Source: Vicinamibacteria bacterium (lineage in GTDB: Bacteria > Acidobacteriota > Vicinamibacteria > Fen-336 > JAGNNV01). Taken from it: a stretch of 30,616 nucleotides of DNA. The stretch spans positions 1 to 30,616 of the forward strand of contig JBDSLN010000240.1 of NCBI GenBank assembly GCA_039916365.1, in the 5' to 3' direction. The position numbers and the translations under genes were made by a program. A model generated the notes under the pieces. That model was not told the origin of the DNA. It made no database searches and worked only from the letters and a program-made list of their open reading frames with translations. Positions 2,528 to 30,489 of this stretch are shown here, one piece after another. Numbering within the stretch: position 1 is the first letter of the stretch; every line of letters starts with the position of its first letter.

Positions 2528-3601
2528 GTGACCGAAACCTTGCCGACCGCTCTCGTCACGGGGTTTCCCGGCTTCATCGGCGAACGCCTGCTGCCAAGGC
2601 TCCTGGAGTTGCATCCACGAACGGAGTTCTTCTGCCTCGTGCAGGCACGCTTTAAGGATCAGGCGCTGAAGGCGCTGCAGCGCCTTGGCCTCCCCCCAGG
2701 CCGCGCGCGCCTCGTCGAAGGCGACATCACGCTCGACGCTCTCGGCATCACGCCCGCCGAACGGGAAACCATCCTGGGTCGGCTCGATGCGGTCTTCCAC
2801 CTCGCTGCGGTCTACGACCTCGCGGTGAAGCCGGAGTTCGCGCATCGCGTGAACGTGATCGGCACGCGGAACATGATCGCGTTCGCGAAAGCTGCGCCAG
2901 GCTTCAAGCGATTCCATCACGTTTCCACCGCTTACGTCTCGGGGACGTTCGAGGGCACGTTCCGCGAGACCGACCTCAACCGCGGCCAGAGCTTCAAGAA
3001 TCACTACGAGCACACGAAGTTCGAATCCGAGCACGATGTGGTGTCGAGCGGCCTGCCCTACACGGTCTACCGTCCCGGCGTCGTGTGGGGCGATTCCAAG
3101 ACCGGCGAGACCGCGAAGTTTGATGGACCGTACGGCGTCATGGTTGCGATGGAGAGACTCCCGTTCGTCTTTCTTGACGGACCGAGTGGCGCCACCATGA
3201 ACGTGGTGCCGGTCGACTACGTCATTGAAGGACTAGCGCTCCTTTCTGCTTCGCCGATCAGTCTTGGCAAGACCTACAACCTGACAGATCCGCAAGGTAA
3301 GGACGTCCGAACCCTCACCCGGCTGATCGCGAAGGCGCTAGGACGTTCGTACGTGTACGTCCCGGTGCCGCTTGTGCTGGTTCGCCAGGCCGTTTCGATC
3401 CCCGGCATCGGGTCAACCCTTGGGCTGATTCCGGAATCGATCGTTTATTTCGGGCATCGCTGCCACTACGACGCCACCCAGGCGAAGACCGATCTCGCGT
3501 CCCTGGGCCTCACCTGTCCGCCCGTCGAGGCCTATGTGGACGTCATCGTGAAGTTCTGGCGCGAAAACCGCGATCGGGTGCGCAAGACGGCCATGGTGTG
3601 A
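2528..3601 (+). CDS. Extended SDR oxidoreductase (NAD-dependent epimerase / thioester-reductase-like)
   Basis: Rossmann motif LVTGFPGFIG, HLAAVYD, VSTAYVSG, catalytic YEHTK (YxxxK), RPGVVWGDSKTG. Confidence 0.85.
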   Translation: MTETLPTALVTGFPGFIGERLLPRLLELHPRTEFFCLVQARFKDQALKALQRLGLPPGRARLVEGDITLDALGITPAERETILGRLDAVFHLAAVYDLAVKPEFAHRVNVIGTRNMIAFAKAAPGFKRFHHVSTAYVSGTFEGTFRETDLNRGQSFKNHYEHTKFESEHDVVSSGLPYTVYRPGVVWGDSKTGETAKFDGPYGVMVAMERLPFVFLDGPSGATMNVVPVDYVIEGLALLSASPISLGKTYNLTDPQGKDVRTLTRLIAKALGRSYVYVPVPLVLVRQAVSIPGIGSTLGLIPESIVYFGHRCHYDATQAKTDLASLGLTCPPVEAYVDVIVKFWRENRDRVRKTAMV

Positions 3602-3611
3602 GTCCGCGTTC

Positions 3612-5450
3612 TTGATAGCACTTCTCGTCCTTGCTTCGGTTTGCTTCGCCGGTTCGCTGCTCGCCTGTCGCCTTGATCGGAACGGAGCCCGGCTCGCGGA
3701 TGCGCTGGCCCTCGGCGCAACCCTGGGCCTGGCCCTCTTCGCGGCCACGGGCTTCGTGCTTGGCTGGATCGCCGGACTCACGCCGTTCACCGTTTTGTGC
3801 GCCGCCCTGATCGCGATCGGTGTTTGCGTCTTTGGCGGAGTGCCGTTCGCGGTTCTGAGGGGAAGGAACACCAAAGCGCCACCCTTGGCCGTCTGGATGT
3901 TGATGGCGGTCAGCTCGATCCTGATTGTCCGGCTCGCGGATCGAACCGTCTTCGAGACATCGACCGGCGCCATTGCCACAGCGGATCGTCATAACTTTGG
4001 CGACCTTCCGTTCCATATGAGCATCGCGGCCGGGTTCGCATACGGCGACAATTTCCCGCCCCAGCATCCCGAGCTTTCCGGGGTATCTCTCACCTATCCG
4101 TTCTTCGGCAACGTGATCGCGGGAATGATTCTGGTTCTCGGCGGAAGCTTCCGCGATGCGTTCTTCTGGCCCGCACTGATCCTCGGCCTGAGTGTCGTGG
4201 CGGCACTCGTCCGTTTTGGCGAAGCGGTCACGGGATCAAGGTCCGTCGGCCGCGCCGCCGCGGCCATGACGTTTTTCTCCGGCGGGCTTGGATTCTTGAA
4301 ACTCACGAGTCAGGCGGCGCTTCAGCAGTGGTGGACCAGCGGTCCCGATCTGACCATCGACGATGCGGGGACGCGCTACGCGAACTTCGTCACGACCATG
4401 TTCATTCCGCAAAGATCCATCCTTTTCGGATGGCCGCTTCTTTTCTTCGCCCTTGCCCTGGTGATCGAGAGTCGTCGGTTGGACGTCGCGGAGCCGGCCG
4501 AGCGGGTGCGCCTTTGGACTTGCGCTGGAATCATCGGTTCCCTGCTTCCTCTGGTCCACGCTCACTCGTTCGCGGTGCTGTCGTTCTGCGTGGTGATGCT
4601 TGGGGCCTACACCGATTGGAAACTGATCTTCCGTTTCGCGGCCGGCGTCTTGCCGCTCGCTCTGCCCGCAGTCATTTTCATGGCGACACGAAACTCTCTT
4701 TCGACCAGCAAGTTCTTCGGGTGGCAACCGGGCTTCGACGGGGGCCATGACCACATTCTTAATTACTGGATGATGAACGCCGGTCTCTTTCTTCCCCTCG
4801 TCATCATTGGCCTGGCACGCGCCCGCGACGCCTCAGTGAGTGCCCCGCTCGCCGCGCCTTTTGCGTCGCTTTTCATCCTGGCGAATCTGTTCCGGCTCTC
4901 TCCGTGGATCTGGGACAACATGAAGTTCCTTGCCCCCGCACACGCGGGCCTAGCGCCCTTCGCCGCCCTCGCGCTGGCCTTCCTCTGGCGTCATGGCAAC
5001 GCAGGCCGGGCCGCGGCCTCGGTGGTTTTCGCGGCGACGATCGCCTCCGGATTGCTGGATGTCTCGAAGGTGGCGCTCGCCGGCGGCGAATTCCAGATCT
5101 TCAGCAGCGACGATCTGGCCTTCGCGGAGAAGGTCCGCGCCGCGACTCCGGCTGACACCGTGATCCTCACCGCACCCACTCACAATCACCCGGTTCTCCT
5201 GTCGGGACGCCGCCTCTTCTACGGCTATGAAGGACATCTCTGGTCTCAAGGCCTCACCTACGTTGACCGAAGGGCGGCCGCAGAAAGCATGCTGCGCGGC
5301 CAACGTCCGATCACCGATGAAGTCCAGGGCATCCGGATTGGAGCGGTGGCGGTGACCTCGGCTGAAGGCCCGCAGGTTCTTGATCCACGGGCTATCGAGG
5401 GGCTTCCATCCCTGGTCGATTCCCCCTATCGTCTCTTGAAAGTTCGATGA
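3612..5450 (+). CDS. Polytopic membrane protein, putative GT-C glycosyltransferase
   Basis: 612 aa, many TM segments. External-loop motif NFGDLPFHMSIAAGFAYGDNFPPQHPELSGVSLTYPFF and a C-terminal soluble domain (LLSGRRLFYGYEGHLWSQG). TTG start uncertain. Confidence 0.65.
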   Translation: MIALLVLASVCFAGSLLACRLDRNGARLADALALGATLGLALFAATGFVLGWIAGLTPFTVLCAALIAIGVCVFGGVPFAVLRGRNTKAPPLAVWMLMAVSSILIVRLADRTVFETSTGAIATADRHNFGDLPFHMSIAAGFAYGDNFPPQHPELSGVSLTYPFFGNVIAGMILVLGGSFRDAFFWPALILGLSVVAALVRFGEAVTGSRSVGRAAAAMTFFSGGLGFLKLTSQAALQQWWTSGPDLTIDDAGTRYANFVTTMFIPQRSILFGWPLLFFALALVIESRRLDVAEPAERVRLWTCAGIIGSLLPLVHAHSFAVLSFCVVMLGAYTDWKLIFRFAAGVLPLALPAVIFMATRNSLSTSKFFGWQPGFDGGHDHILNYWMMNAGLFLPLVIIGLARARDASVSAPLAAPFASLFILANLFRLSPWIWDNMKFLAPAHAGLAPFAALALAFLWRHGNAGRAAASVVFAATIASGLLDVSKVALAGGEFQIFSSDDLAFAEKVRAATPADTVILTAPTHNHPVLLSGRRLFYGYEGHLWSQGLTYVDRRAAAESMLRGQRPITDEVQGIRIGAVAVTSAEGPQVLDPRAIEGLPSLVDSPYRLLKVR

Positions 5451-6925
5451 AGCGCTTTTCGAAGTCCGACGCGATCGCCCTCACGATCCTTGCCGTTGCC
5501 ATCGCCTTTCGTTTCCAGGACCTCAGCCTGCGCCCTTTCCACCATGACGAGGGCGTGAACGGATTCTTCCTGACGCGACTGTGGCGCGAAGGCGCCTACA
5601 AGTACGACCCCGGCAACTATCACGGCCCGTCGCTCTACTACCTCACCCTGCCCCTCGTCGCCATTCTGGGGCTGTCGGATGCGGCTCTTCGCGGCACGAC
5701 GGCAGTGTTCGGCACGTTCACCCTGATCGTACTCTGGCGATTTCTCTCGCCCGCCGGGTCGCTTTTTGCTGTGGGAGCAATAGCGTTGATGGCGACGTCG
5801 CCCAGTGCTGTCTTCTACTCGCGCTACTTCATCCACGAGACTCTCTTCGTCGCCTTCACTCTGTGTGCGATCGCGGCGGCGCCTTTGGGCGAGGGCCGCC
5901 ACCAACGATGGCGGTTCATAGCCACGGGGCTCGCCCTCGGCCTGCTCTTCGCCACCAAAGAGACGGCGTTTGTTTCCGCGGGCGCCGTCGTCGCGGGCGC
6001 GGTCATGTCAGCCTGGCTCGTTCAGGGCCGTTCCCCGCTGGCCGTTGCACGCCGGGTGGGACCGCATTGTCGGGAGCACGCCGAGAACATCCTCCATGGG
6101 TCCTTGACCTTCGTCACCACCGCCTCGCTCCTTTACTCCTCGTTCTTCCGCAATCCGGTCGGCGTGATGGACGCCTTCCGCACCTTTGCCTTCTGGACGA
6201 AGACGGCGGTGCGCGACCATGAGAATCCGTGGAACCAGCATTTCCTCTGGCTGAAGGAAGCAGATCCTGCACTTTTCTATGTCGGCTTCGCGGGAGTGGT
6301 CCTCGCGCTGATTCTGCGCCGTTCCTTTGTGGGCGTGATGACTTCGGTGTGGACCATCCTGCTTTTCTTCGCTTACACCGTGGTGAAGTACAAGACCCCC
6401 TGGCTCGGGCTCAACATGCTCTTGCCGCTTTCGATCGCGAGTGGCTACTTGTTCGAGGAACTCGGACGCATCAACTTCCTGTCCGGACGCCTCTCGATGA
6501 AGCCCGTCGCCGCCCTTCTCATCGCCACGGCGGTGGGCCTGTCCGCGACCAAGAGCCACGAACTCGAAGCGGTGAAGTACGACGACGAGACGCATCCCTA
6601 CATCTACGCGCACACGCAGCGTTCCTTCTTTGAGTTGCTGAAGCAGGTCGATACCCACGCCAACGCCATCGGGAAGGGCAAGACGGCGGGCATCGCGATC
6701 TTCGCGCCGGAAAACTGGCCTCTTGCGTGGTACCTGCGGGAATACCCAAACGCGGGCTACTGGGGCGAGTTCAAGGACGAAGTGAATGTGGACATGTACA
6801 TCACAAACGTCGCCCAGGAGCCGCAGATGAAGGCGAAACTTGGTGACGCCTATGACCGCGTCGGTCCTTACAACATGCGGGGCGTGGTCGACCTGGTGCT
6901 CTACTCGAAGAAGGTCGCGCAGTGA
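5447..6925 (+). CDS. TIGR03663 / Agl23-like PMT-type GT-C membrane protein
   Basis: LSLRPFHHDEG, YKYDPGNYHGPSLYY, FYSRYFIHE, LFATKETAF and KYKTPW are characteristic of this family. ATGA overlap with the upstream gene. Confidence 0.8.
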   Translation: MKRFSKSDAIALTILAVAIAFRFQDLSLRPFHHDEGVNGFFLTRLWREGAYKYDPGNYHGPSLYYLTLPLVAILGLSDAALRGTTAVFGTFTLIVLWRFLSPAGSLFAVGAIALMATSPSAVFYSRYFIHETLFVAFTLCAIAAAPLGEGRHQRWRFIATGLALGLLFATKETAFVSAGAVVAGAVMSAWLVQGRSPLAVARRVGPHCREHAENILHGSLTFVTTASLLYSSFFRNPVGVMDAFRTFAFWTKTAVRDHENPWNQHFLWLKEADPALFYVGFAGVVLALILRRSFVGVMTSVWTILLFFAYTVVKYKTPWLGLNMLLPLSIASGYLFEELGRINFLSGRLSMKPVAALLIATAVGLSATKSHELEAVKYDDETHPYIYAHTQRSFFELLKQVDTHANAIGKGKTAGIAIFAPENWPLAWYLREYPNAGYWGEFKDEVNVDMYITNVAQEPQMKAKLGDAYDRVGPYNMRGVVDLVLYSKKVAQ

Positions 6926-6933
6926 GATTCTTG

Positions 6934-8397
6934 CTAGGGCTTTGATCCACCCGCGGAGGGCGCCGTCGCGGAAACAGGAGCGGTGATGTCCCGGCGGAAT
7001 CGCGCGATGGGCGCAGTGTTGTCGAAGAGAATGCGATCACCTTTGTCGGCCTTGACGCCAAGGGAAGCCCAGATGGCTCCGAGATCGGGCGTCACGGCGC
7101 GCGTGGACCATTCGTCGTAGGTGTCGCGGAGGACGGTGGTGCCGGTCGCCGACTCTGCCATAGAGCCGAGCCGAGCCAGATCCCATCGAACGGCGACGTT
7201 GCCCCCGTTGTTCATGACCGCGCGAAGGACATCGTCGAGAGAACGCCGGCCATCGGTGCGGCGGCGAATGTCAAGGTCGACCTGAAACCAGAAGAGCGCT
7301 CCACCCCAGTAGGTGCGCCCCCAGCTGGCGGTTCGATCGAGACCGGCGTCGCCTTCCTTGGGCAAACCTTGCGGCATGGCGCGCAGGAACTCGCCCCACA
7401 TCTGAGTGGCGTCGTAGCGGCCGCGGCGGGCGCGCAGGAGCGGCTCCAGATAGGTCGACAACCCTTCCTCCATCCAGCGCTGCCGGAAGCCAAGGTTGGG
7501 AAGGGCCACATGCAGCATCTCGTGCGTCATCACCCAGTCACGCAGGAGATCCGCTTTGCGTGTCCGCTCCCCCACCACCACGAAGATCGAGGCCCCGCCC
7601 ATCCCCATGGTGACCGCGGAACCGATGGCGTAAGGGCCGCCCTGGCCCACGATGATCTGGAGGCGGGGGAGCGGCAGGCGGCCGAGTAACGAGGTGACAT
7701 CGAGCGCGCCTTCGCGCACCCAGGCCACGATGTCGTCCTCCGTCACGCCGTGCGGACCCGGGCCGATCGCGACGTCGATTCGGCCACCGGGCAGTTCGAT
7801 TGTGCGGTGAGCGAAATCTCCGAGAACGACGTGGGGTCCATCGATCATCATCAGGTCCGTCTCGATGTGGTTGATGCGACCGTCGGTAACGCCCGAGACG
7901 AGCTCGAAGCCCTTGCCTCCATCAAAGTCGATGCGCAGACGACCCCGCGCGCGACGGTCCTCGGGACGCACCAGCCAGCGAACGAGGGGGGCCATCACGA
8001 TCCGTTGCCGTTCTTCGAATCCCCAATCGCCCCTCTTGTCGGAAGCGATTCCCTCTCCAAAGTCAACCACGTAAGTCAGGCGGCACCCATCGTGCGCGCA
8101 CATGGCGGCCCACTCTGGGTTCTCGGCAATGAGACCAGGGGACGTCGCATCCATACCCAGCTTCGCGATCGTTCGCGCGGAAATGATCGAGGCTTCATCG
8201 CGCGGGAAGCGTGGCCGTAACCCGGAGGGCCAGGCCACGTCCACTTTGAAGGTCCGTTTGACCTTATCCGCGGTCGCCTTGACCTCGATCAGAGGCTCAA
8301 GGCCGACCGCCGCGGGAGCCGGCGGCGCGGACGGGGCAGAGAGTCCCGACTCGAGCGCAAGTAGCCCGAACGCAGACGCGAAACGCGCAAGTCTCAT
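6934..8397 (-). CDS. Secreted gluzincin metallopeptidase (M61 / M1-like)
   Basis: THEMLH (HExxH) followed by WMEEGLSTY, and RTYWGGALFW. Signal-peptide-like N-terminus from ATG 8397 (MRLARFASAFGLLAL); alternative ATG at 8427. Confidence 0.75.
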   Translation of the reverse strand: MRLARFASAFGLLALESGLSAPSAPPAPAAVGLEPLIEVKATADKVKRTFKVDVAWPSGLRPRFPRDEASIISARTIAKLGMDATSPGLIAENPEWAAMCAHDGCRLTYVVDFGEGIASDKRGDWGFEERQRIVMAPLVRWLVRPEDRRARGRLRIDFDGGKGFELVSGVTDGRINHIETDLMMIDGPHVVLGDFAHRTIELPGGRIDVAIGPGPHGVTEDDIVAWVREGALDVTSLLGRLPLPRLQIIVGQGGPYAIGSAVTMGMGGASIFVVVGERTRKADLLRDWVMTHEMLHVALPNLGFRQRWMEEGLSTYLEPLLRARRGRYDATQMWGEFLRAMPQGLPKEGDAGLDRTASWGRTYWGGALFWFQVDLDIRRRTDGRRSLDDVLRAVMNNGGNVAVRWDLARLGSMAESATGTTVLRDTYDEWSTRAVTPDLGAIWASLGVKADKGDRILFDNTAPIARFRRDITAPVSATAPSAGGSKP

Positions 8398-8600: not shown

Positions 8601-9752
8601 ATGAAAAACACACTACTCGCCGCAGGGCTGCTTGTCGGCCTCACCCCTCTCGCAACCGCGCCCGTCGCGGCTCAGACCACAACTACCACCAAGTACATCA
8701 CCGTTGACGGTGAAGTCCTCCGCTATGAAGCTGGCAGGACCATCGTCATTCGCGGCGCTGACAACAAGGAGATGGTGTACACCCTCACGCCCTCCTTCGT
8801 GATGCCCATGGACGTGAAGGTGGGACGTCGGGTGACTCTGTACACCGAACCGGGCATAAACGGAGGAACGCAGGTTGTCACGCGCGTGACCACCACCAGC
8901 GTCACCCCGGAAGGCAACCTGAAGCGCGTCACGGAAGACACACGCACTTTGCCCTCGGGTGCTACCACCACCAAATACGTCACCGTCGATGGTGAAGTGC
9001 TCCGCTACGAAGCGGGCAAGACCATCGTCATCCGCGGCTCAGACAATAAGGAAATGATGTACACCCTTACGCCCTCCTTCGTGATGCCCATGGACGTGAA
9101 GGTGGGACGTCGAGTGACTCTGTACACCGAACCGGGCATGAACGGAGGAACGCAGGTTGTCACGCGCGTAACCACCACCAGCGTCACCCCCGAAGGCAAC
9201 GTTAAGCGCGTCACGGAAGACACCCGTACCTTGCCCTCGGGTGCGACCACCACCAAGTACGTCACCGTCGATGGTGAAGTCCTCCGCTACGAAGCGGGCA
9301 AGACCATCGTCATTCGCGGAGCCGACAATAAGGAGATGATGTACACCCTTACGCCCTCCTTCGTGATGCCCACGGACGTGAAGGTGGGACGTCACGTGAC
9401 GCTTTACACCGAACCGGCGGCGATGGGCGGCACCCAGGTCGTCTCCCGCGTAACCACAACCAGCGTCACCCCCGAAGGCAACGTGAAGAGCGTCACGGAA
9501 GACACCCGTACCTTGCCCTCGGGTGCTACCACCACGACCACGACCACTCGCATCTCGGGCAGGGTCGACGCGTATGAGCCGGGCAAGACTCTGACCATCA
9601 CGCGCGCTGACGGCACGCAGGCGACGTACATCATCAACGGAACGTCAAGCATCCCGACCGACCTCATGATCGGAAAGACCATTTCCATCGTTCCCTCCGC
9701 CTCGGGCGACATGGTCGTTCAAACCATCACGTACGTGCCGATCAAGAAGTAG
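8601..9752 (+). CDS. Secreted Thr-rich hypothetical protein with three 94-aa repeats and a diverged C-terminal fourth module
   Basis: ATG 8601 after a purine-rich stretch gives a signal peptide (MKNTLLAAGLLVGLTPLATAPVAA-Q). Repeats run TTTKY(I/V)TVDGEVLRYEAG...RTLPSGA. Beta-rich, possibly OB-fold-like. Confidence 0.85.
   Translation: MKNTLLAAGLLVGLTPLATAPVAAQTTTTTKYITVDGEVLRYEAGRTIVIRGADNKEMVYTLTPSFVMPMDVKVGRRVTLYTEPGINGGTQVVTRVTTTSVTPEGNLKRVTEDTRTLPSGATTTKYVTVDGEVLRYEAGKTIVIRGSDNKEMMYTLTPSFVMPMDVKVGRRVTLYTEPGMNGGTQVVTRVTTTSVTPEGNVKRVTEDTRTLPSGATTTKYVTVDGEVLRYEAGKTIVIRGADNKEMMYTLTPSFVMPTDVKVGRHVTLYTEPAAMGGTQVVSRVTTTSVTPEGNVKSVTEDTRTLPSGATTTTTTTRISGRVDAYEPGKTLTITRADGTQATYIINGTSSIPTDLMIGKTISIVPSASGDMVVQTITYVPIKK
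8682..9527 (+). repeat. Three intragenic 282-bp tandem repeats
   Basis: The Lys codon of TTKY recurs at 8691, 8973 and 9255 (period 282). Differences between units are mostly synonymous. Confidence 0.97.
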
Positions 9753-23045: not shown

Positions 23046-24794
23046 CTACACCATGTTCTCGCGGCTGCGTTCCAACACGGTGCGCAGGTTCGCGACGACT
23101 CGGTCCTGCTCCGTGTCCTTGAGGCCAAGGATCTCCTTGAGGGCGATGCCGATGTGCGGAATGAACTTGTCGATGTAGCCGCGCTTCTTCGCTTCAGCCT
23201 GTTCGCGCTTGCCGCGGCGGATGTGGATGCCAAGACGGCGGCCCACTTCCATCAGTCCCAGACGAAGTTCTTTGACGATCTCAGTGTAGTGCGCAATCGC
23301 TTCCTTCGATTCGGACGTGAACGGAACCCACACCGACGCGATGTGGACCATCAGGACCATCGGACCCGAGGGCAAGGCGCCCTTCGACATCTGCATGCCG
23401 TAGCTGCGCCAGTCGATGCTCAAGGCCGCTTTGGTGATCGCGCAGGCCGACGCCTGATACTGGAGAGGCACGCGATTCGCGAAACGGAACAGCTCGATCA
23501 ATTCGTCGCTCGGCAAGCCGCCGCCGTGCGCCAGCGCCACTTCGACCTGGAACGGATTGCCGCGGTACACCGCGGGCGGACGCGTGACCGCATCGTAGAA
23601 GTCGGCTTTGAGTCGCGCGCGCAAACCCTTGAGCAACGCCTCTTCGCCGACCGGCGAAAGGCAGTTGGTCGGCGGCGCCATGATCTTCACTTTTCCGAAC
23701 GCCTTGTGGATGCGCTCGATGGCTGGTGTTTCCAGATCGCGCGGACGCGCTTTTTCGGAGACACCCGCGATCTTCAAGATCTCGCTGACCACACTTGGCG
23801 TCATGCGCGAGAAGTCGGTCTTGAGCGCAGTCGAGATGTGCTTCTCCTGAGAGTCCTGGAACATGCGCATGAGGCGGCCAAGTTCGACACCGTACGGATG
23901 AGGCTTGATCTCCTTCGCCTCTTCCGGAAGCTCGTGAACCGCGCGCTCGTAGGTGATGGTCTCGCAACCGGGTGCCGTGTAGATGACCTGGCAATGAGGG
24001 TTGGAGAGCGCCGTCTGCTCGACGTAGTCATCAACGCTGCGACGACCCTTCTTGTAGCTCGCTTCCAGCTCGATCTGCACCCGCGTGCCGTGCTGCTTGT
24101 CCCACTCGGTCTTCTCTTCCTTGAGGACGAGCGGCTGGTTCTTCCGCGTATCGACGGTGACCTCAAAAAGATGAGGCGGCGTCTGCGGCGAGGTACGGGA
24201 CACGATCACCACTGGCTTGCCGGTGGTGAGCTGGCCGTACATGCCGGCCGCGGACACGCCGATCCCCTGCTGGCCGCGCTGTTGCTTCAGGCGATGGAAC
24301 TTCGAACCGTAGAGGAGCTTGCCGAAGACCTTGGGGATCTGCGCCTTGACGATACCGGGGCCGTTGTCTTCCACCGCGATCCGGTACCGATCTTCCGCCA
24401 GTTCGAGGATTTCAATCCGGAGGTCGGGAAGGATGCCCGCTTCTTCGCAGGCGTCGAGCGAGTTGTCGACGCACTCGCGCACCGCGGTGAGCAACGACTT
24501 CTGCTTGTTGTCGAAGCCAAGGAGATGGCGGTTTTTGACGAAGAACTCAGAGACGGAGATCTCGCGCTGCTTCTCGGCCAGACTTTCGGCGGTGGCGCGA
24601 CGGGCGGGCGCCTTGCGAACGGGCACAGGCTCCACCTCGATCGCCGAGTCGTCTTCGTCTGCAAGGACGGGGGGAGGTTCTGGCGCTTCCGTCTCAGCCG
24701 GGGCGATCTCGACCGCCCCTGTTTCTACTTCGTCTGCGTTCGCGTCAAAGAGGGAAGGCTGTGCGGCCTTCGCGCGAACGTTCTTTTTTGACAT
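23046..24794 (-). CDS. top6B: DNA topoisomerase VI subunit B
   Basis: [24 protein letters not shown] motifs [36 protein letters not shown] and [35 protein letters not shown]. Confidence 0.96.
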
Positions 24795-24817
24795 AGCCAA
24801 GATGGACCAACGACCTC

Positions 24818-24882: not shown

Positions 24883-25839
24883 TTGCTTGTGAGCCCAACC
24901 TCCTCCGCGTCGCGCGAACGAACCCTCGCCTACATCGGCCTCGGTGTCGTCTACATCGTCTGGGGCGCCACGTATGTCGGCATCCGTGCGGTGGTGGCTC
25001 ATATGCCTCCCTTCGTCGCCGCAGCGATGCGCTACCTGATCGCCGGAGGTTCGCTTCTGGCGTACCTCGCCCTCCGTGGCCAGTGGAAGAAGCCGACCCG
25101 TGAGCAGTGGATCAACGCGGCGATCGTGGGAATTCTTCTGATGGGCATCGGCAACGGACTCATCATGTGGGCGCAGCGCAGCATCCCCAGTGGCACCACC
25201 GCGCTGCTGGTCGCAACCTTTCCTTTGTGGCTGACGCTGGCGGAGGCGTTCTCGAGTCGGGGCTCGTCGTTAAGGATGCCGGTGGTGATGGGCGTGGTGG
25301 TCGGGCTCATCGGCGTCTTCCTGATCGCGTCCGCGAAAGGCGACGTTTCATTTAGCGGAACCGGTACCCCTCTGGCTGCCCTGCTCGCCGTTCAGGCTGC
25401 GTCCATCTGCTGGACGATTGGTTTCCTGAAGGCAAAGACTCTGAAAGACCGGCTACCCGTCGTGATGGCTTCGGGCCTGGAGATGACCTCGGGCGGGCTG
25501 TTCCTCCTGCTTCAATCGATCCTCTACCGCGAGGACTGGGGCCGCGTCAGCCGGGCTCCGCTCAGCGCATGGGCCGGCGTGATGTTCCTTGCCGTGTTCG
25601 GGTCGATCATCGGTTTCACCGCATTCGCTTACACACGCAACATCCTGCCGTCGCACATCGTGGGCACGTACGCGTACGTCAATCCGCTGGTGGCCGTGAT
25701 CTTCGGCCATCTCCTCTACGCGGAGACACTGTCCAGCCAGACCCTGATGGGTGGTGCTTTGATCCTGACCGCGGTCGTGGTCAGCACGATCCCGGGCTCA
25801 AAGCCTCCAGCCGAAGCCTGTCAGGTCGAGGACCGGTAG
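24883..25839 (+). CDS. EamA / DMT-family transporter
   Basis: [42 protein letters not shown]; about ten TM helices. Start may be GTG 24889. Confidence 0.92.
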
Positions 25840-25864
25840 CAGGACCTTCCAGCGCAGGCTGAGC

Positions 25865-25882
25865 GTTCGGCATCGAACAGAC
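25865..25882. repeat. 18-bp repeat GTTCGGCATCGAACAGAC (core GTTCG-N4-CGAAC), left copy
   Basis: 17/18 identical to 29111-29128. Confidence 0.88.
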
Positions 25883-25911
25883 GTCTGGGGACGCTTTGGT
25901 GGAGCCTGTGC

Positions 25912-26358
25912 CCAGGATGCAGGCACCATGAGCGACTCACTGTGCTCGGAACGTTCCTCCGCGAAGTGATGAGCCACAATCTCGACACTCAGAACTTCCG
26001 TCTCTTCGGTCCAAATGAAACGGCGTCGAATCGGCTGGATGCGGTGTAAGACGTGTCCGGCAAGGAGTGGATGGCGGCGTTGGACGACGTCGATACCCAT
26101 CTGAGTTCCCGGGGTCGCGTCATGGAATTGCTGAGCGAGCATCTCTGCCAGGGCTGGCTCGAAGGCTATCTGCTCACCGGTCGCGACGGGCTTTTTTCCT
26201 GCTACGAAGCATCCATTCACATCGTCGACTCGATGGTGAATCAGCACGCGAAGTGGAAAGCGACGGCGAGTTACTGGAGCACGATGGAACGCCACCGCCT
26301 TCACGTGGGCGCGCACGGAGAAGATCGTCCGGAAGTCCGCGACTGGCTCACGCCGTGA
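25912..26358 (+). pseudogene. xfp: Phosphoketolase remnant (5' half missing, nonsense codon, in-frame internal deletion)
   Basis: One frame reads [10 protein letters not shown]...[17 protein letters not shown](TAA 26047-26049)DVSGKEW...[47 protein letters not shown], then directly the C-terminal-type [21 protein letters not shown]. Left boundary approximate. Confidence 0.92.
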
Positions 26359-28898
26359 ACGGGACGAGCCTGCGCGGTCTCAGCGAGACGGATGCTCAGG
26401 CGCGTCTGCTGTCCGAGGGCTTCAACGAACTTCCGCAATCCGATCACCGAACGCCGTTCAGGATCATTGGCGAGGTTGTGCGGGAGCCCATGCTGGCCCT
26501 GCTCCTCGGCGCGGGCGCGGTGTACCTCGTCCTTGGAGACAGGACAGAAGCGCTGATCCTGCTCGCTTTCGCGACGCTGTCGGTCGGAATTACGGTCATC
26601 CAGGAGATCCGGACGGAGAAGGTCCTCTCCGCGCTCAAAGACCTCTCCAGTCCGCGGGCTCTGGTGATCCGTGATGGCGAGCGCAAGCGCATCGCGGGAC
26701 GCGAGGTCGTGCGTGGCGATTTCATCGCCCTCGTCGAAGGCGATCGTGTCCCCGCCGACGCGCGCCTCGTGGAGAGCCACGATCTCCAGACGGACGAATC
26801 GCTTTTGACCGGCGAGTCGGTGGCCGTGCGCAAGGTCGCGACCACGGCCGGTGAATCCATCTTCGCCGTTCGTCCTGGCGGCGATGATCTGCCGTTCGTA
26901 TTCTCGGGCTCGCTGGTCGTGCGCGGCCTGGGTGTCGCGGAAGTTTCCGAGGTCGGATCCGCAACCGAGATCGGCAGAATCGGTCAGAGCCTGAGCTCGC
27001 TCGTCAGTGAGACCCCGCGGCTTCAGACCGAGACCCGCGCCCTCGTCCGGATGTTCGGGGCAGTCGGAGGCACCGTCAGCCTTCTGGCGGTCGTGCTCTA
27101 CGGAACGATGCGCGGCGGCTGGCTCGACGCGGTGCTCGCGGGCATAGCGCTGGGCATGTCGATGCTGCCCGAGGAACTGCCCCTCGTCCTGACCGTTTTC
27201 ATGGCGATGGGCGCCTGGCGCATCTCTCAAGCACGCGTGCTCGCCAGACGCGCCACGGCCATAGAGACATTGGGATCCGCGACCGTTCTCTGTACCGACA
27301 AGACGGGAACGCTCACGCAGAACCGGATGATCATCGCCGAGCTCCGCCTTCCGGGCGGAGACGCTTTCAGACCCGCGAGCGACAAGGGCGCACCGTCCGC
27401 GGATTTTCAAACCGTGCTGGAGTTCGGCATATTGAGCAGCGCGCTGCATCCGACCGATCCCATGGAGCTTGCGTTTCAATCGCTTCAAAAGGAGCGCCTT
27501 CCGGAGGCCATTCTGCCGGGAGCGACGTCGACGTTGCTACGCGAATACGGACTTCGACCCGAACTACTCGCGATGACCCACGTCTGGAAGCCCGCGGCCG
27601 GAGCGGCCCTGACTGTCGCCGCCAAAGGCGCGCCGGAAGCCATCGCCCGCCTGTGTCGACTCGCTCCTGAAGCGCGGACGGCGCTCGATGCTGGGGTGAA
27701 CAACCTGGCCGGGCAGGGAATGCGCGTTCTCGCGGTGGCGCGCGGGTCCTTCGACGGATTGACCCTCCCGGAATCGCAGACCGACTTCGTCTTCTCGCTC
27801 GTCGGCCTCGTCGGACTGGCCGACCCGCTTCGCCCGGGCGTGCCCGACGCGGTCAATGCATGCCGCTCGGCGGGCGTACGAGTTGTGATGATCACGGGCG
27901 ACTACCCCACCACCGCTCAGGTGATCGCGCGCCAGGCGGGATTCTTCGCCGATGAAGTGCTCACGGGCGAGGCGATGGCGAAGATGAGCGATGAGGAACT
28001 GGCTCTGAAGGTCCGCACGGCCACGGTGTTCGCGCGTGTGCTGCCGGAGCAAAAACTGCGCATCGTCCGGGCGCTCAAGGCGAACCACGAGGTCGTCGCC
28101 ATGACCGGCGATGGAGTCAACGACGCGCCTTCATTGAAAGCGGCGCACATCGGCATCGCCATGGGCGGTCGCGGCACCGACGTGGCTCGCGAGGCTTCGT
28201 CGATGGTCCTTCTCGACGATGACTTCGGTTCGATCGTGAAGGCGATCCGTTTGGGTCGCAGGATCTTCGACAATCTTCAGAAGGCCATGGGATTCATCTT
28301 CGCGGTGCATGTTCCGATCGCGGGACTGGCGCTTCTCCCACTTCCCTTCGGCCTCCCCATCCTCTTCGGCCCGGTGCACATCGCCCTGCTGGAGATGGTC
28401 ATCGATCCCGTCTGCTCGCTCGTCTTCGAAGCAGAAACCGAAGAGAAGGACATCATGGGCCGCCCGCCCCGCGATCCGGCGACGCCGCTGTTCGGCCGTT
28501 CGATGATTCTGTGGAGCGTCGTTCAGGGCGCGGTTGCGTTCGCGATCGTGGCAGGGATCTTCGTCACGGCTCTCAACCGCGGTATGCCCGCGGATGAAGT
28601 GCGCGCTTTGACCTTCTTCGCGCTGGTTCTGAACATCGTGGCACTCATCTTCGCGAATCGATCTTTCAGCGGCTCGCTGATCATCGCCGTGACGCAACCA
28701 AACCAGGCGCTCGTCCGCGTGTTGCCTGCGGTGTTCCTGATGATGTCCCTGTCCCTTCTCTGGCCGCGGGCGAGGGTCCTCCTCCATTTTCAGACGCCGC
28801 GCGCCGGCCCGCTGGCGATCGCGCTGGCCTCGAGCATGCTCCTGCTCCTCCTTCTCGAGGCCGCGAAAACCGGATGGCAGAGACGAAGCCGCTCGTGA
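26355..28898 (+). CDS. Cation-translocating P-type ATPase (P2-like)
   Basis: [19 protein letters not shown] (phosphorylated Asp), [27 protein letters not shown]. The true start is GTG 26355, overlapping the xfp stop (GTGA). Confidence 0.95.
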
Positions 28899-29090
28899 TG
28901 GAGGAAGGGGGCGCCAAACACGTTCTCGCACTGAACTCCGGCTCGTCGTCGCTGAAGTTCGGGCTCTACCGCGTGACGACGTAGCGATCGAATTCACTCG
29001 GCCGCGTCTCACTGCGCGGTCCAGGTCCTGCCTCCACAGGAAGACGAACAGATCGCGCTTCACCTCGCCGCTCCGACGCAGCCTCACTGA
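28898..29090 (+). pseudogene. ackA: Acetate kinase remnant: N- and C-termini joined by an out-of-frame deletion
   Basis: ATG 28898 (TGATG overlap with the ATPase) gives [28 protein letters not shown] (TAG 28982-28984), the AckA N-terminal motif. Another frame gives SDRIHSAASHCAVQVLPPQEDEQIALH...* (TGA 29088-29090), resembling the AckA C-terminus. Confidence 0.85.
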
Positions 29091-29110
29091 ATCCGGCACG
29101 TTCGGGAGAT

Positions 29111-29128
29111 GTTCGCCATCGAACAGAC
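29111..29128. repeat. 18-bp repeat GTTCGCCATCGAACAGAC, right copy
   Basis: 17/18 identical to 25865-25882. With the flanking T it forms the palindrome TGTTCG-CCAT-CGAACA (29110-29125). Confidence 0.88.
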
Positions 29129-29161
29129 CTGACGACGTGGGCGGCGCAAGCTGAAGATCGA

Positions 29162-29551
29162 ATGACTAAACAAGCAGGCGTTTGGATCGATCATCGTGAA
29201 GCGATTCTGATTTTCCTCGGCGACGAAGGCGAGCGCACGGAGCGTATGGAATCCGGAGTCGAGCGACATGAACGCGTCGCTGGTCTGTCGTCGGAGGATG
29301 CGTCTCCTGACGACCAGCATGACCGCAAGATCGCGGGGCACCTCGACAAGTACTACGACGAAGTGATCCAACGCCTGGGAGCAAGCGAATCGATCCTGCT
29401 CTTCGGTCCGGGTGAAGCGAAAGGCGAGTTCCAGAAGCGTATCGAGAGCAAGGGCCACGCGGAACGCATCGTCGCCGTGGAGACGGCGGACAAGATGACG
29501 GATCCGCAGATCGCCGCGAAGGTTCGCAACTACTTCGGCGCCAAGAAATGA
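29162..29551 (+). CDS. Small eRF1-domain-2-like / host-attachment-family protein
   Basis: GVWIDHREA and ILLFGPGEAKGEF...IVAVETADKMTDPQIAAKVRNYF match the pattern I recall for this family. Confidence 0.6.
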   Translation: MTKQAGVWIDHREAILIFLGDEGERTERMESGVERHERVAGLSSEDASPDDQHDRKIAGHLDKYYDEVIQRLGASESILLFGPGEAKGEFQKRIESKGHAERIVAVETADKMTDPQIAAKVRNYFGAKK

Positions 29552-30489
29552 GCACCGCCAGGATCGACCACATCCTCTGCCCGACAGACTTCTCTCCTTT
29601 CTCCGGTCAGGCGCTCCGACACGCGATCGCGCTGACGCAGTCGTTCCACGCGCACCTCAAGGTCATTCATGTCATCCCGGAAGTCTTCCTCCGGGGAGAA
29701 TCCGTTTACGCATCGGATTCGTGGATCCTGACGCCGGACGTTCGGCAGGCGGTTGAAGCAGAGATGCAGCGCTTTCTTCAGCCGGCGCGAGACGCCGGCA
29801 TTGATCACGAGACCGAAATCCGCAGCGGCACTCCCTGGACGGAGATCCTGGTCGCGGCGAAAGAGAAGCCCTCGGACCTAGTCGTTCTCGGAAGCCACGG
29901 ACATGGAGGTTTGCATCGTCTTGTTCTCGGATCCGTGGCCGAAAAGCTGATTCGTTCTCTCCCTTGCGCCGTCATGAGCGTGAGGCACGAAGGAGGGCCG
30001 ACGTCGCTGACACCAGGACGGATCGCTCACATCCTGTGTGCCACCGATTTCTCGGAGACTTCGAATCAAACCTTTGAGACGGCGATTGCCATCGCTTCAA
30101 GAAACGGGGCCAAGGTGACGTTGCTGCATGTGATCGAGCGATTCCCCGACGTCAAAGCCGTTGAGTACGGGGCGCTCGGCGCCGATCCATCAAATCCGGG
30201 ACTGGAGCGCCATGCGGTTGAGCGCCTTCAACAGCTCATCGCAAGCGTGGATGCCAGGGGCGTTGAGATAGAGCCGAAGGCAAAGGTCGGCCGGGCCTAC
30301 AAAGAGATACTCACGATGGCAGCAACCGAGCCAACCGACCTCATCATGATCGGCGCCCAGGGGCACGGCGTCATCGAACACCTGCTCTTCGGATCCAATG
30401 CACATCACGTCGTCCGGGCGGCCACCTGTCCGGTTCTGACTGTGCGGATGCGGTCGAAGGACGACGACGGCGCGCGGACCGAGGCCTAG
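29548..30489 (+). CDS. Tandem-domain universal stress protein
   Basis: Two USP domains: ILCPTDFS...DLVVLGSHGHGGLHRLVLGSVAEKLIR and ILCATDFS...DLIMIGAQGHGVIEHLLFGSNAHHVVR. ATGA overlap with the upstream gene. Confidence 0.95.
   Translation: MSTARIDHILCPTDFSPFSGQALRHAIALTQSFHAHLKVIHVIPEVFLRGESVYASDSWILTPDVRQAVEAEMQRFLQPARDAGIDHETEIRSGTPWTEILVAAKEKPSDLVVLGSHGHGGLHRLVLGSVAEKLIRSLPCAVMSVRHEGGPTSLTPGRIAHILCATDFSETSNQTFETAIAIASRNGAKVTLLHVIERFPDVKAVEYGALGADPSNPGLERHAVERLQQLIASVDARGVEIEPKAKVGRAYKEILTMAATEPTDLIMIGAQGHGVIEHLLFGSNAHHVVRAATCPVLTVRMRSKDDDGARTEA

Follow-up and report, generated by a model that had tools for sequence, protein, structure and literature searches.

At class II promoters of Escherichia coli, the regulators CRP and FNR bind sites centred at -41.5, with the sequences TGTGA-N6-TCACA and TTGAT-N4-ATCAA, respectively. 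The cyanobacterial NtcA protein is also a class II activator; it senses 2-oxoglutarate and recognizes GTA-N8-TAC. In Mycobacterium tuberculosis, the DosR (DevR) dormancy regulon includes several universal stress proteins (USPs), the CBS protein Hrp1, the P2-type ATPase CtpF and the eRF1-like protein Rv2629. We analyzed a 30,616-nucleotide stretch of DNA from an uncultured Vicinamibacteria bacterium (contig JBDSLN010000240.1 of assembly GCA_039916365.1; the whole stretch is called here the window) in which an 18-bp element containing a palindrome occurs twice, each time ahead of a short group of genes. In its predicted mode of action this element resembles a class II CRP/FNR/NtcA site, and it is probably a member of the same family of systems. 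Our reading, to which we give a probability of roughly 70%, is that each 18-mer is the binding site of a dimeric Crp/Fnr-family protein as well as the upstream part of a class II promoter under the control of that protein. A dimer would sit on the palindrome, whose last base would open a poor -35 hexamer (CAGACC or CAGACG), and a -10 hexamer of the form nAnnnT would follow 17 to 18 nt on; the centre of the palindrome would then lie at -41.5/-42.5, the position at which CRP, FNR, NtcA and other class II activators make contact with RNA polymerase. Copy 2 would drive an eRF1-like gene and a tandem-domain USP gene, and copy 1 would drive a mini open reading frame (mini-ORF) followed by the remnant of a phosphoketolase gene (xfp) and an intact P2-type ATPase gene. 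The same element would head a genus-wide stress or low-oxygen-type regulon in which the genes of the candidate regulators, Crp-A, Crp-B and Crp-C, are themselves included.

The two copies are on the + strand, as are the predicted -10 hexamers and the genes of both units described below. Copy 1, GTTCGGCATCGAACAGAC, spans positions 25865-25882 in non-coding DNA, 26 nt past the stop codon of an EamA transporter gene (25839). Copy 2, GTTCGCCATCGAACAGAC, spans positions 29111-29128, also non-coding, between a stub of the acetate kinase gene (ackA) and the eRF1-like gene. They are identical at 17 of 18 positions, their starts are 3246 bp apart and both contain the core GTTCG-N4-CGAAC; an ATG follows copy 1 after 34 nt (25917) and copy 2 after 33 nt (29162). 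An earlier note on this DNA had reported the two 18-mers with this identity, spacing, intergenic setting and downstream ATGs, and all of it proved exact when the sequence was read again. Each copy consists of a palindrome, GTTCGGCATCGAAC (25865-25878) or GTTCGCCATCGAAC (29111-29124), and the tail AGAC. The -35-like hexamer of copy 1, CAGACG (25878-25883), shares the last base of the palindrome, and that of copy 2 is CAGACC (29124-29129). No similarity between the copies was found outside the 18-mer, so they are not parts of a duplicated segment.

On its own, a 17/18 repeat within 30 kb is unremarkable, since by our own estimate about two such pairs are expected by chance. The pattern GTTCGNNNNCGAACAGAC, with 14 specified bases, occurred twice in the window versus 0 times in 100 dinucleotide-preserving shuffles. 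The window is one whole contig (C240) of a metagenome-assembled genome (MAG) of 3.2 Mb and 70% completeness, referred to as G000. A position weight matrix scan of the whole assembly ranked copy 2 as the best site (29.3 bits) and copy 1 as the second (26.3 bits), and a strict 18-mer search returned both copies and one near-copy with a single mismatch (C175:4263), which is a chance match inside a dihydroorotase-like coding frame. End-overlap joining of C240 to the other contigs of G000 found no overlap. Contigs assembled independently from four soil-metagenome runs, belonging to four studies, spanned both junction regions (EamA-copy 1-xfp remnant and ATPase-ackA stub-copy 2-eRF1-like gene). The number of differences was 0 to 3, all outside the motifs. 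Because these independent contigs bridge the junctions, the arrangement is real and no artefact of the MAG.

In eight further genomes from the genus, copy 2 is kept at the same position before the ortholog of the eRF1-like gene. The nine orthologous promoters read GTTCG-N4-CGAACAGACC, with small variations such as GTACG...CGCAC and with the same distance to the ATG. They also share a cAAGCT box 8 to 10 nt before the ATG, conserved in six of the nine and nearly conserved in the rest, and the remaining upstream DNA is unalignable. When up to one mismatch was allowed, the pattern had about 113 matches in 18 genomes of the genus (about 6.3 per genome), against about 11 for the reversed control in the same genomes; the control gave roughly 0.5 matches per genome across the order sample. 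In the sister families of the order (43 genomes) the pattern itself was found about 1.4 times per genome, and exact matches numbered about 15 within the genus versus 1 outside. Homologues of the eRF1-like gene in other phyla had no motif upstream and showed ordinary AGGAG Shine-Dalgarno leaders, which makes the element specific to this lineage. The 18-mer of copy 1 also recurs without a change (20/20 when the two bases before it are counted) ahead of a P1B-type ATPase gene in the sister species G008, whose EamA is 93% identical. There is thus a strong case that the repeat is a real cis-regulatory element.

For the analysis of promoter architecture, 62 sites were aligned on the 18-mer; they came from 14 genomes and belonged to at least 20 gene families. 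A hexamer with A at its second and T at its sixth position (nAnnnT) started 18 nt after the 18-mer in 25 of the 62 sites and 19 nt after it in 28; as one site may count at both offsets, these represent up to 53 of the 62. At all other offsets from 5 to 44 the hexamer was present in 0 to 5 sites each. If the -35 hexamer (CAGACC) is counted from the final C of the palindrome, the spacer measures 17 to 18 nt. Between the palindrome centre and the downstream T at -7 there are then 34.5 to 35.5 nt, which places the centre at -41.5 or -42.5 on the assumption that transcription starts 7 nt after the -10 hexamer. This phasing therefore corresponds to the geometry of a class II Crp/Fnr activator site. 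Concerning the palindrome itself, GTKCG-N4-CGMAC, eight positions of its 14-bp core, made of two 5-bp arms, were invariant in the 62 sites. In the left flank, T at -1 (53%) and T at -3 (47%) mirror the A-n-A on the right, so the site extends weakly to about 20 bp, (T)GTKCG-N4-CGMAC(A). Position 3 of the arms is degenerate (T, G and sometimes, though rarely, A) and hybrid sites are common, both of which suggest that GTKCG-N4-CGMAC is one specificity class.

In the window, the predicted -10 hexamer of copy 1 is GAGCCT (25902-25907), which has the A2 and T6, begins 19 nt after the 18-mer and puts the centre at about -42.5. That of copy 2 is CAAGCT (29147-29152), 18 nt after the 18-mer, with the centre at -41.5. 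Both are separated from their ATG by 9 nt, so the predicted mRNAs, with starts expected at about 25914 and 29159, would be nearly leaderless. The two -35 hexamers are poor, with 3/6 matches to TTGACA, and a generic sigma-70 scan of positions 25700-29300 detected no canonical promoter at either copy, as expected if the -35 were too weak to work without an activator. Leaderless starts seem normal in the genus, judging from the layout of the lexA promoter, which is near-identical in five of its genomes: TTGAAT, a 17-nt spacer (ATTCGCTTTTWTTTCGC), TATACT, 8 nt and a GTG start. The TTCGC that recurs inside this lexA spacer may be the LexA box of the lineage.

A candidate for the protein that would bind these sites was found beside one of them. 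The G000 contig that carries the site of an alcohol dehydrogenase gene (C267) encodes two Crp/Fnr-family proteins, Crp-A (3128-4009, with its actual start probably at a GTG some 90 nt further in), with cNMP_binding and HTH_Crp_2 domains, and Crp-C (4959-5666), with an HTH_Crp_2 domain; in other genomes a third paralogue type, Crp-B, adjoins Crp-A in divergent orientation. The palindrome lies directly upstream of Crp-A in two genomes (G000 and G008) and of Crp-C in six, seven genomes together, and this position upstream of the Crp genes themselves suggests autoregulation. In G000 and G008 the Crp-A upstream region reads GTGCGGTAYCGCAC, CGGATG, a 17-nt spacer and TATTCT or TATGCT, that is, the same -35/-10 layout. 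A further genus of the order yielded a single homologue, and the palindrome lies upstream of it too. The Crp-A/B/C subfamily was found in 12 of the 18 genus genomes, where it co-occurs with the regulon. In four others, in which the eRF1-like gene and convincing sites are likewise absent, it was not found. To judge from these sequences, this distinct subfamily is likely the regulator of the sites.

The closest named and solved relative of Crp-A is NtcA (TIGR03697, E = 3e-7; PDB 8h3v, E = 7e-6). Yet its score of 30.4 bits is far under the TIGR03697 family cut-off of 244.95, so the regulator is not an NtcA. The recognition helices of Crp-A and Crp-C, RREGVT and MRSAVT, have the R-x-x-V-T form of NtcA. 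Read by eye, the subfamily lacks the Glu of the Gly-Glu pair with which CRP binds cAMP, and it also lacks the N-terminal Fe-S cysteine cluster of FNR. An FNR/FixK box was considered for the palindrome and rejected, because the half-site is GTKCG, the helices of Crp-A and Crp-C do not have the E--SR form and the FixK-like proteins of the genus, with an ETSIR helix, form a separate group.

Behind the sites, several kinds of gene were found across the genus. The eRF1-like gene with the USP gene follows the site in nine genomes, and a further tandem USP gene of G000 (contig C421) stands behind two sites with a divergent LOG-like gene. A Zn-alcohol dehydrogenase gene is also headed by a site and is followed by an aldehyde dehydrogenase gene in one genome. 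Sites were found before genes for multihaem cytochromes c and for a 77-aa CxxC protein in two genomes each, and before DJ-1/PfpI protein genes in three. Further genes behind sites encode an OYE flavin reductase, a CBS-domain protein, a truncated globin, P-type ATPases, TonB-dependent receptors and an outer-membrane efflux protein. By its gene content, this set resembles a dormancy or low-oxygen programme. The earlier note had suggested an unknown operator heading both stress units of the window, to be checked by a motif scan for matches before USP or hypoxia genes, and this suggestion was supported: such a scan found sites before USP, CBS, globin and alcohol dehydrogenase genes, in line with the conservation, the enrichment in the genus and the -10 phasing.

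Two minor observations concern members of this set in G000. A variant of the element, GTACGCTGMCGCACGGAC, is present in three copies, at C421 1051-1068 and 1281-1298 and at C492 4718-4735; the two C421 copies are 230 bp apart upstream of the tandem USP gene, and each has a ggcgcac(c/g)gtgg-like box about 20-30 nt downstream. The motif-headed Zn-alcohol dehydrogenase gene (C267, 1906-3031) is split over three frames (about 1831-2112, 2109-2498 and 2672-3031) and is intact in another genome of the genus (G003, 5166-6218). The split may reflect a second decayed regulon gene or errors of assembly.

The comparison with described systems showed both likenesses and differences. As in class II CRP and FNR promoters, the site is two-fold symmetric with a 14-bp core that has GT and AC ends, its predicted centre at -41.5/-42.5 overlaps a weak -35, and regulator genes of the same family are linked to sites and carry them. 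In contrast, the half-site is GTKCG and not GTGAn or TTGAT, and Crp-A/B/C lack the CRP and FNR residues mentioned above. The statement in the earlier note that the element does not match the FNR/FixK, CRP, Rex or SOS consensus was thus right about the consensus sequences, yet the 14-bp GT-N10-AC frame is common to CRP and NtcA sites. With NtcA the system shares this frame and the R-x-x-V-T recognition helix, but it differs at half-site positions 3 to 5 and its regulon is one of stress and redox functions, not of nitrogen. The overlap with the DosR regulon is in the kinds of gene that are included. DosR itself is a response regulator of the NarL/LuxR type that recognizes a different, 20-bp motif, whereas the candidate here is of the Crp type. 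Hypoxia might be the signal of the regulon here. Finally, LexA SOS boxes (e.g. CGAAC-N4-GTTCG) have similar 5-bp arm sequences, but in the opposite order, and the regulon here is not one of DNA repair.

A literature search found neither the motif nor an acidobacterial Crp regulon, and for the Vicinamibacteria, which are abundant soil Acidobacteria and almost all uncultured, we found no described transcription-factor regulon. For these bacteria, the present analysis supplies an operator that can be tested, together with a promoter architecture, a candidate regulator and a set of genes. It would add a new half-site specificity (GTKCG) and a regulator subfamily to the Crp/Fnr family, and the dormancy or low-oxygen-like gene set would parallel the mycobacterial DosR regulon while being wired to a Crp-type factor. 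The class II Crp-type mechanism itself is textbook knowledge; the gain is in annotation and ecology and not in concept.

A regulator from the Crp-A/B/C subfamily is likely and activation of these promoters is plausible, and several observations weigh against the reading proposed here. A search for RNA runs found none listed. No Crp-A/B/C gene was detected in two genomes of the genus that have good sites (G012, 97% complete, and G017, 78% complete); their Crp-family genes belong to the FixK-like group with the ETSIR helix, and no regulator gene was found near the G012 locus. Among 300 Acidobacteriota, the distant homologues of Crp-A mostly lack an upstream palindrome, and three of the seven closest carry TGTGCG...GCACA-like palindromes upstream. 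Many of the 62 aligned sites are orthologous and hence not independent, and they were selected for the AGAC tail, so the conservation of the tail is partly by construction. In addition, a site that overlaps the -35 could equally serve a repressor. Indeed, a Crp-like protein or a member of another family (e.g. GntR) could sit on the -35 and block RNA polymerase until a stress signal arrives. The two genomes with sites and no member of the Crp subfamily leave room for such a regulator, and GntR operators also have the GT...AC frame, GT-N10-AC being not unique to Crp proteins. We consider repression unlikely, though worth keeping in mind, because the poor -35 hexamers (3/6) and the lack of a detectable canonical promoter fit a dependence on an activator, and because a centre at -41.5/-42.5 in most of the 62 sites is typical of class II activation and unneeded for repression. 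As for GntR, it is Crp genes and not GntR genes that are linked to sites and carry them.

The remaining explanations seem to us much less probable. The CGAAC arm resembles the GGAAC of the -35 boxes of ECF sigma factors, and the element could be read as the -35 box of an alternative (ECF-type) promoter; this is improbable, as conservation is as high in the left arm, GTKCG, as in the right one and such two-fold symmetry indicates a dimeric binder, the distance from GAAC to the -10-like hexamer is about 22 to 23 nt versus an ECF spacer of 16 to 17 nt, and the -10 has the housekeeping form nAnnnT. The earlier note had offered att-like ends of an integrated segment as the other explanation of the repeat. 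The copies are indeed direct repeats around a segment (xfp-ATPase-ackA) with genes truncated at both ends and an ATPase that is not the ortholog of those of the genus. Site-specific integration is nevertheless very improbable: copy 2 is kept with the eRF1-like gene in eight genomes that lack the segment, an identical copy 1 heads another ATPase in G008, the element stands at many unlinked loci, the segment has neither an integrase or transposase gene nor a shift in composition, and the breakpoints of truncation and homology are not at the repeats. The empty-site allele that was to be looked for, with EamA directly followed by the eRF1-like gene, was not found in any of 11 relatives. The half-sites TGTTC and GAACA resemble LexA boxes of Gram-positive and other bacteria, but a variant SOS box has hardly any likelihood here, given that the palindrome is absent from the lexA promoter, which is highly conserved in five genus genomes, and that the downstream genes are of stress and redox functions with no DNA-repair gene among them. 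The same holds for a chance match or a local duplication of no function, the outcome that the earlier note had reserved for the case of no other copies before stress genes and no empty site in relatives: a single 17/18 repeat would be expected about once or twice in 30 kb, as estimated above, but none of the 100 shuffles reached two matches of the pattern, and conservation across species, genome-wide enrichment and phasing with -10 elements rule this explanation out for practical purposes.

Why the two sites bracket the xfp-ATPase-ackA module became clearer from the comparison of G000 with its sister species. In nine other genomes of the genus a conserved convergent gene follows EamA, and other DNA was found at this place only in G000 and G008. 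In G000 it consists of the two operator-headed units, and in G008 of Crp-A and Crp-C with their palindromes (G008:C415 1334-4083), that is, of regulator genes and not of regulated units. Since EamA is followed by either regulators or regulated units, this region represents a variable, lineage-specific island tied to the regulon. Two G008 contigs overlap by exactly 55 nt in frame, and when joined they give the order copy 1 18-mer (18/18), mini-ORF, P1B-type ATPase gene, GTTCGCCAGCGAACAGAC (17/18), eRF1-like gene. The presence of the same two sites in G008 indicates that they are the promoters of two adjacent units inherited from the ancestor that both species share. The species differ in the cargo that the first unit carries, a P1B-type ATPase gene in G008 and the xfp'-P2-ATPase-'ackA piece in G000. 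From its sequence, this piece appears to be a paralogous or foreign operon fragment that took the place of an earlier cargo. It does not end at the repeats: one end is 48 nt inward of copy 1 and the other 126 nt before copy 2.

Two other accounts of this junction were tried and rejected. Copy 1 is not the native promoter of xfp brought to its present place by an internal deletion, as the upstream regions of the intact xfp genes of the genus are varied and do not have this layout. An 11-nt match between G000 and G008 (CGAAGTGATGA) downstream of site 1 was regarded as a possible recombination junction, but the homology to xfp begins upstream of the match. It is conceivable, though doubtful, that the operator copies also delimit exchangeable promoter-to-promoter cassettes, the short identical modules serving as recombination anchors. 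If this were true, the regulon could take up and exchange genes that are under the control of its regulator from the outset.

The first unit of the window starts with a mini-ORF of four codons (MQAP-stop, 25917-25931), about 3 nt downstream of the predicted transcription start. The TGA of the mini-ORF and an ATG at 25928 overlap as ATGA, and the ORF from this ATG ends after 13 codons inside the xfp remnant. The mini-ORF of G008 (C222, about 7334-7355) has six codons (MSAPTK-stop), lies 34 nt after site 1 and overlaps the ATG of the P1B-type ATPase gene as TGATG. Such leaderless mini-ORFs of four or six codons may load ribosomes onto downstream genes that lack a Shine-Dalgarno sequence. The xfp remnant (about 25931-26358) begins near residue 390 of the phosphoketolase, contains an internal TAA and an internal deletion, and is 77% identical in nucleotides to the intact xfp gene of G000 on contig C261. 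Its stop codon overlaps the GTG start of the intact P2-type (Ca/Mg-like) cation ATPase gene (26355-28898), which was identified by NCBIfam and by the Pfam domains E1-E2_ATPase, Cation_ATPase_N/C and Hydrolase. From the state of the neighbouring sequences, this ATPase gene is probably the one gene of the copy 1 transcription unit that still works. Its product shows 71-73% amino acid identity with the ATPases of all 11 genus genomes, those of the sister species included, and none of these is encoded next to xfp or ackA or carries the motif. The equal distance to all of them suggests that the ATPase of the window is a paralogue or xenologue and not an ortholog. The stop codon of the ATPase gene overlaps the ATG of the ackA stub (28898-28984), which comprises 28 N-terminal codons and is 85% identical in nucleotides to the start of ackA on C261, where an intact xfp-ackA pair is present. 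The 126 nt that separate the ackA stub from copy 2 were searched for a source, and no match was found anywhere.

The second unit consists of the eRF1-like gene (29162-29551, 129 aa) and the tandem-domain USP gene (29548-30489; Pfam Usp, two domains, E = 1.7e-60), and since the start of the latter overlaps the stop of the former, both genes belong to one unit. The 129-aa protein had no match in Pfam or NCBIfam. Its AlphaFold2 model (mean pLDDT 80.7) resembles the central domain of aRF1, eRF1, Pelota and the bacterial hibernation factor Balon, and a Foldseek search with the model returned aRF1, eRF1, Pelota and Balon (Rv2629) at E values of about 1e-5 with TMq up to 0.69. Balon homologues, Rv2629 included, are reported to be induced by hypoxia in mycobacteria (PMC10901736). 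The predicted protein of the window would have one eRF1-like domain, whereas Balon has three domains. On the basis of this predicted fold, it may be a small ribosome-associated stress factor. It belongs to a widespread unannotated family, with 401 relatives from many phyla in the genome collection and an invariant GPGEA motif.

Two further features of the window lie apart from this locus. A topoisomerase VI B-subunit-like gene (23046-24800, - strand; Pfam Topo-VIb_trans and HATPase_c) has no adjoining gene for an A subunit. At positions 8682-9527, three tandem repeats of 282 nt, 87-100% identical to each other, are contained in an ORF of 424 aa.

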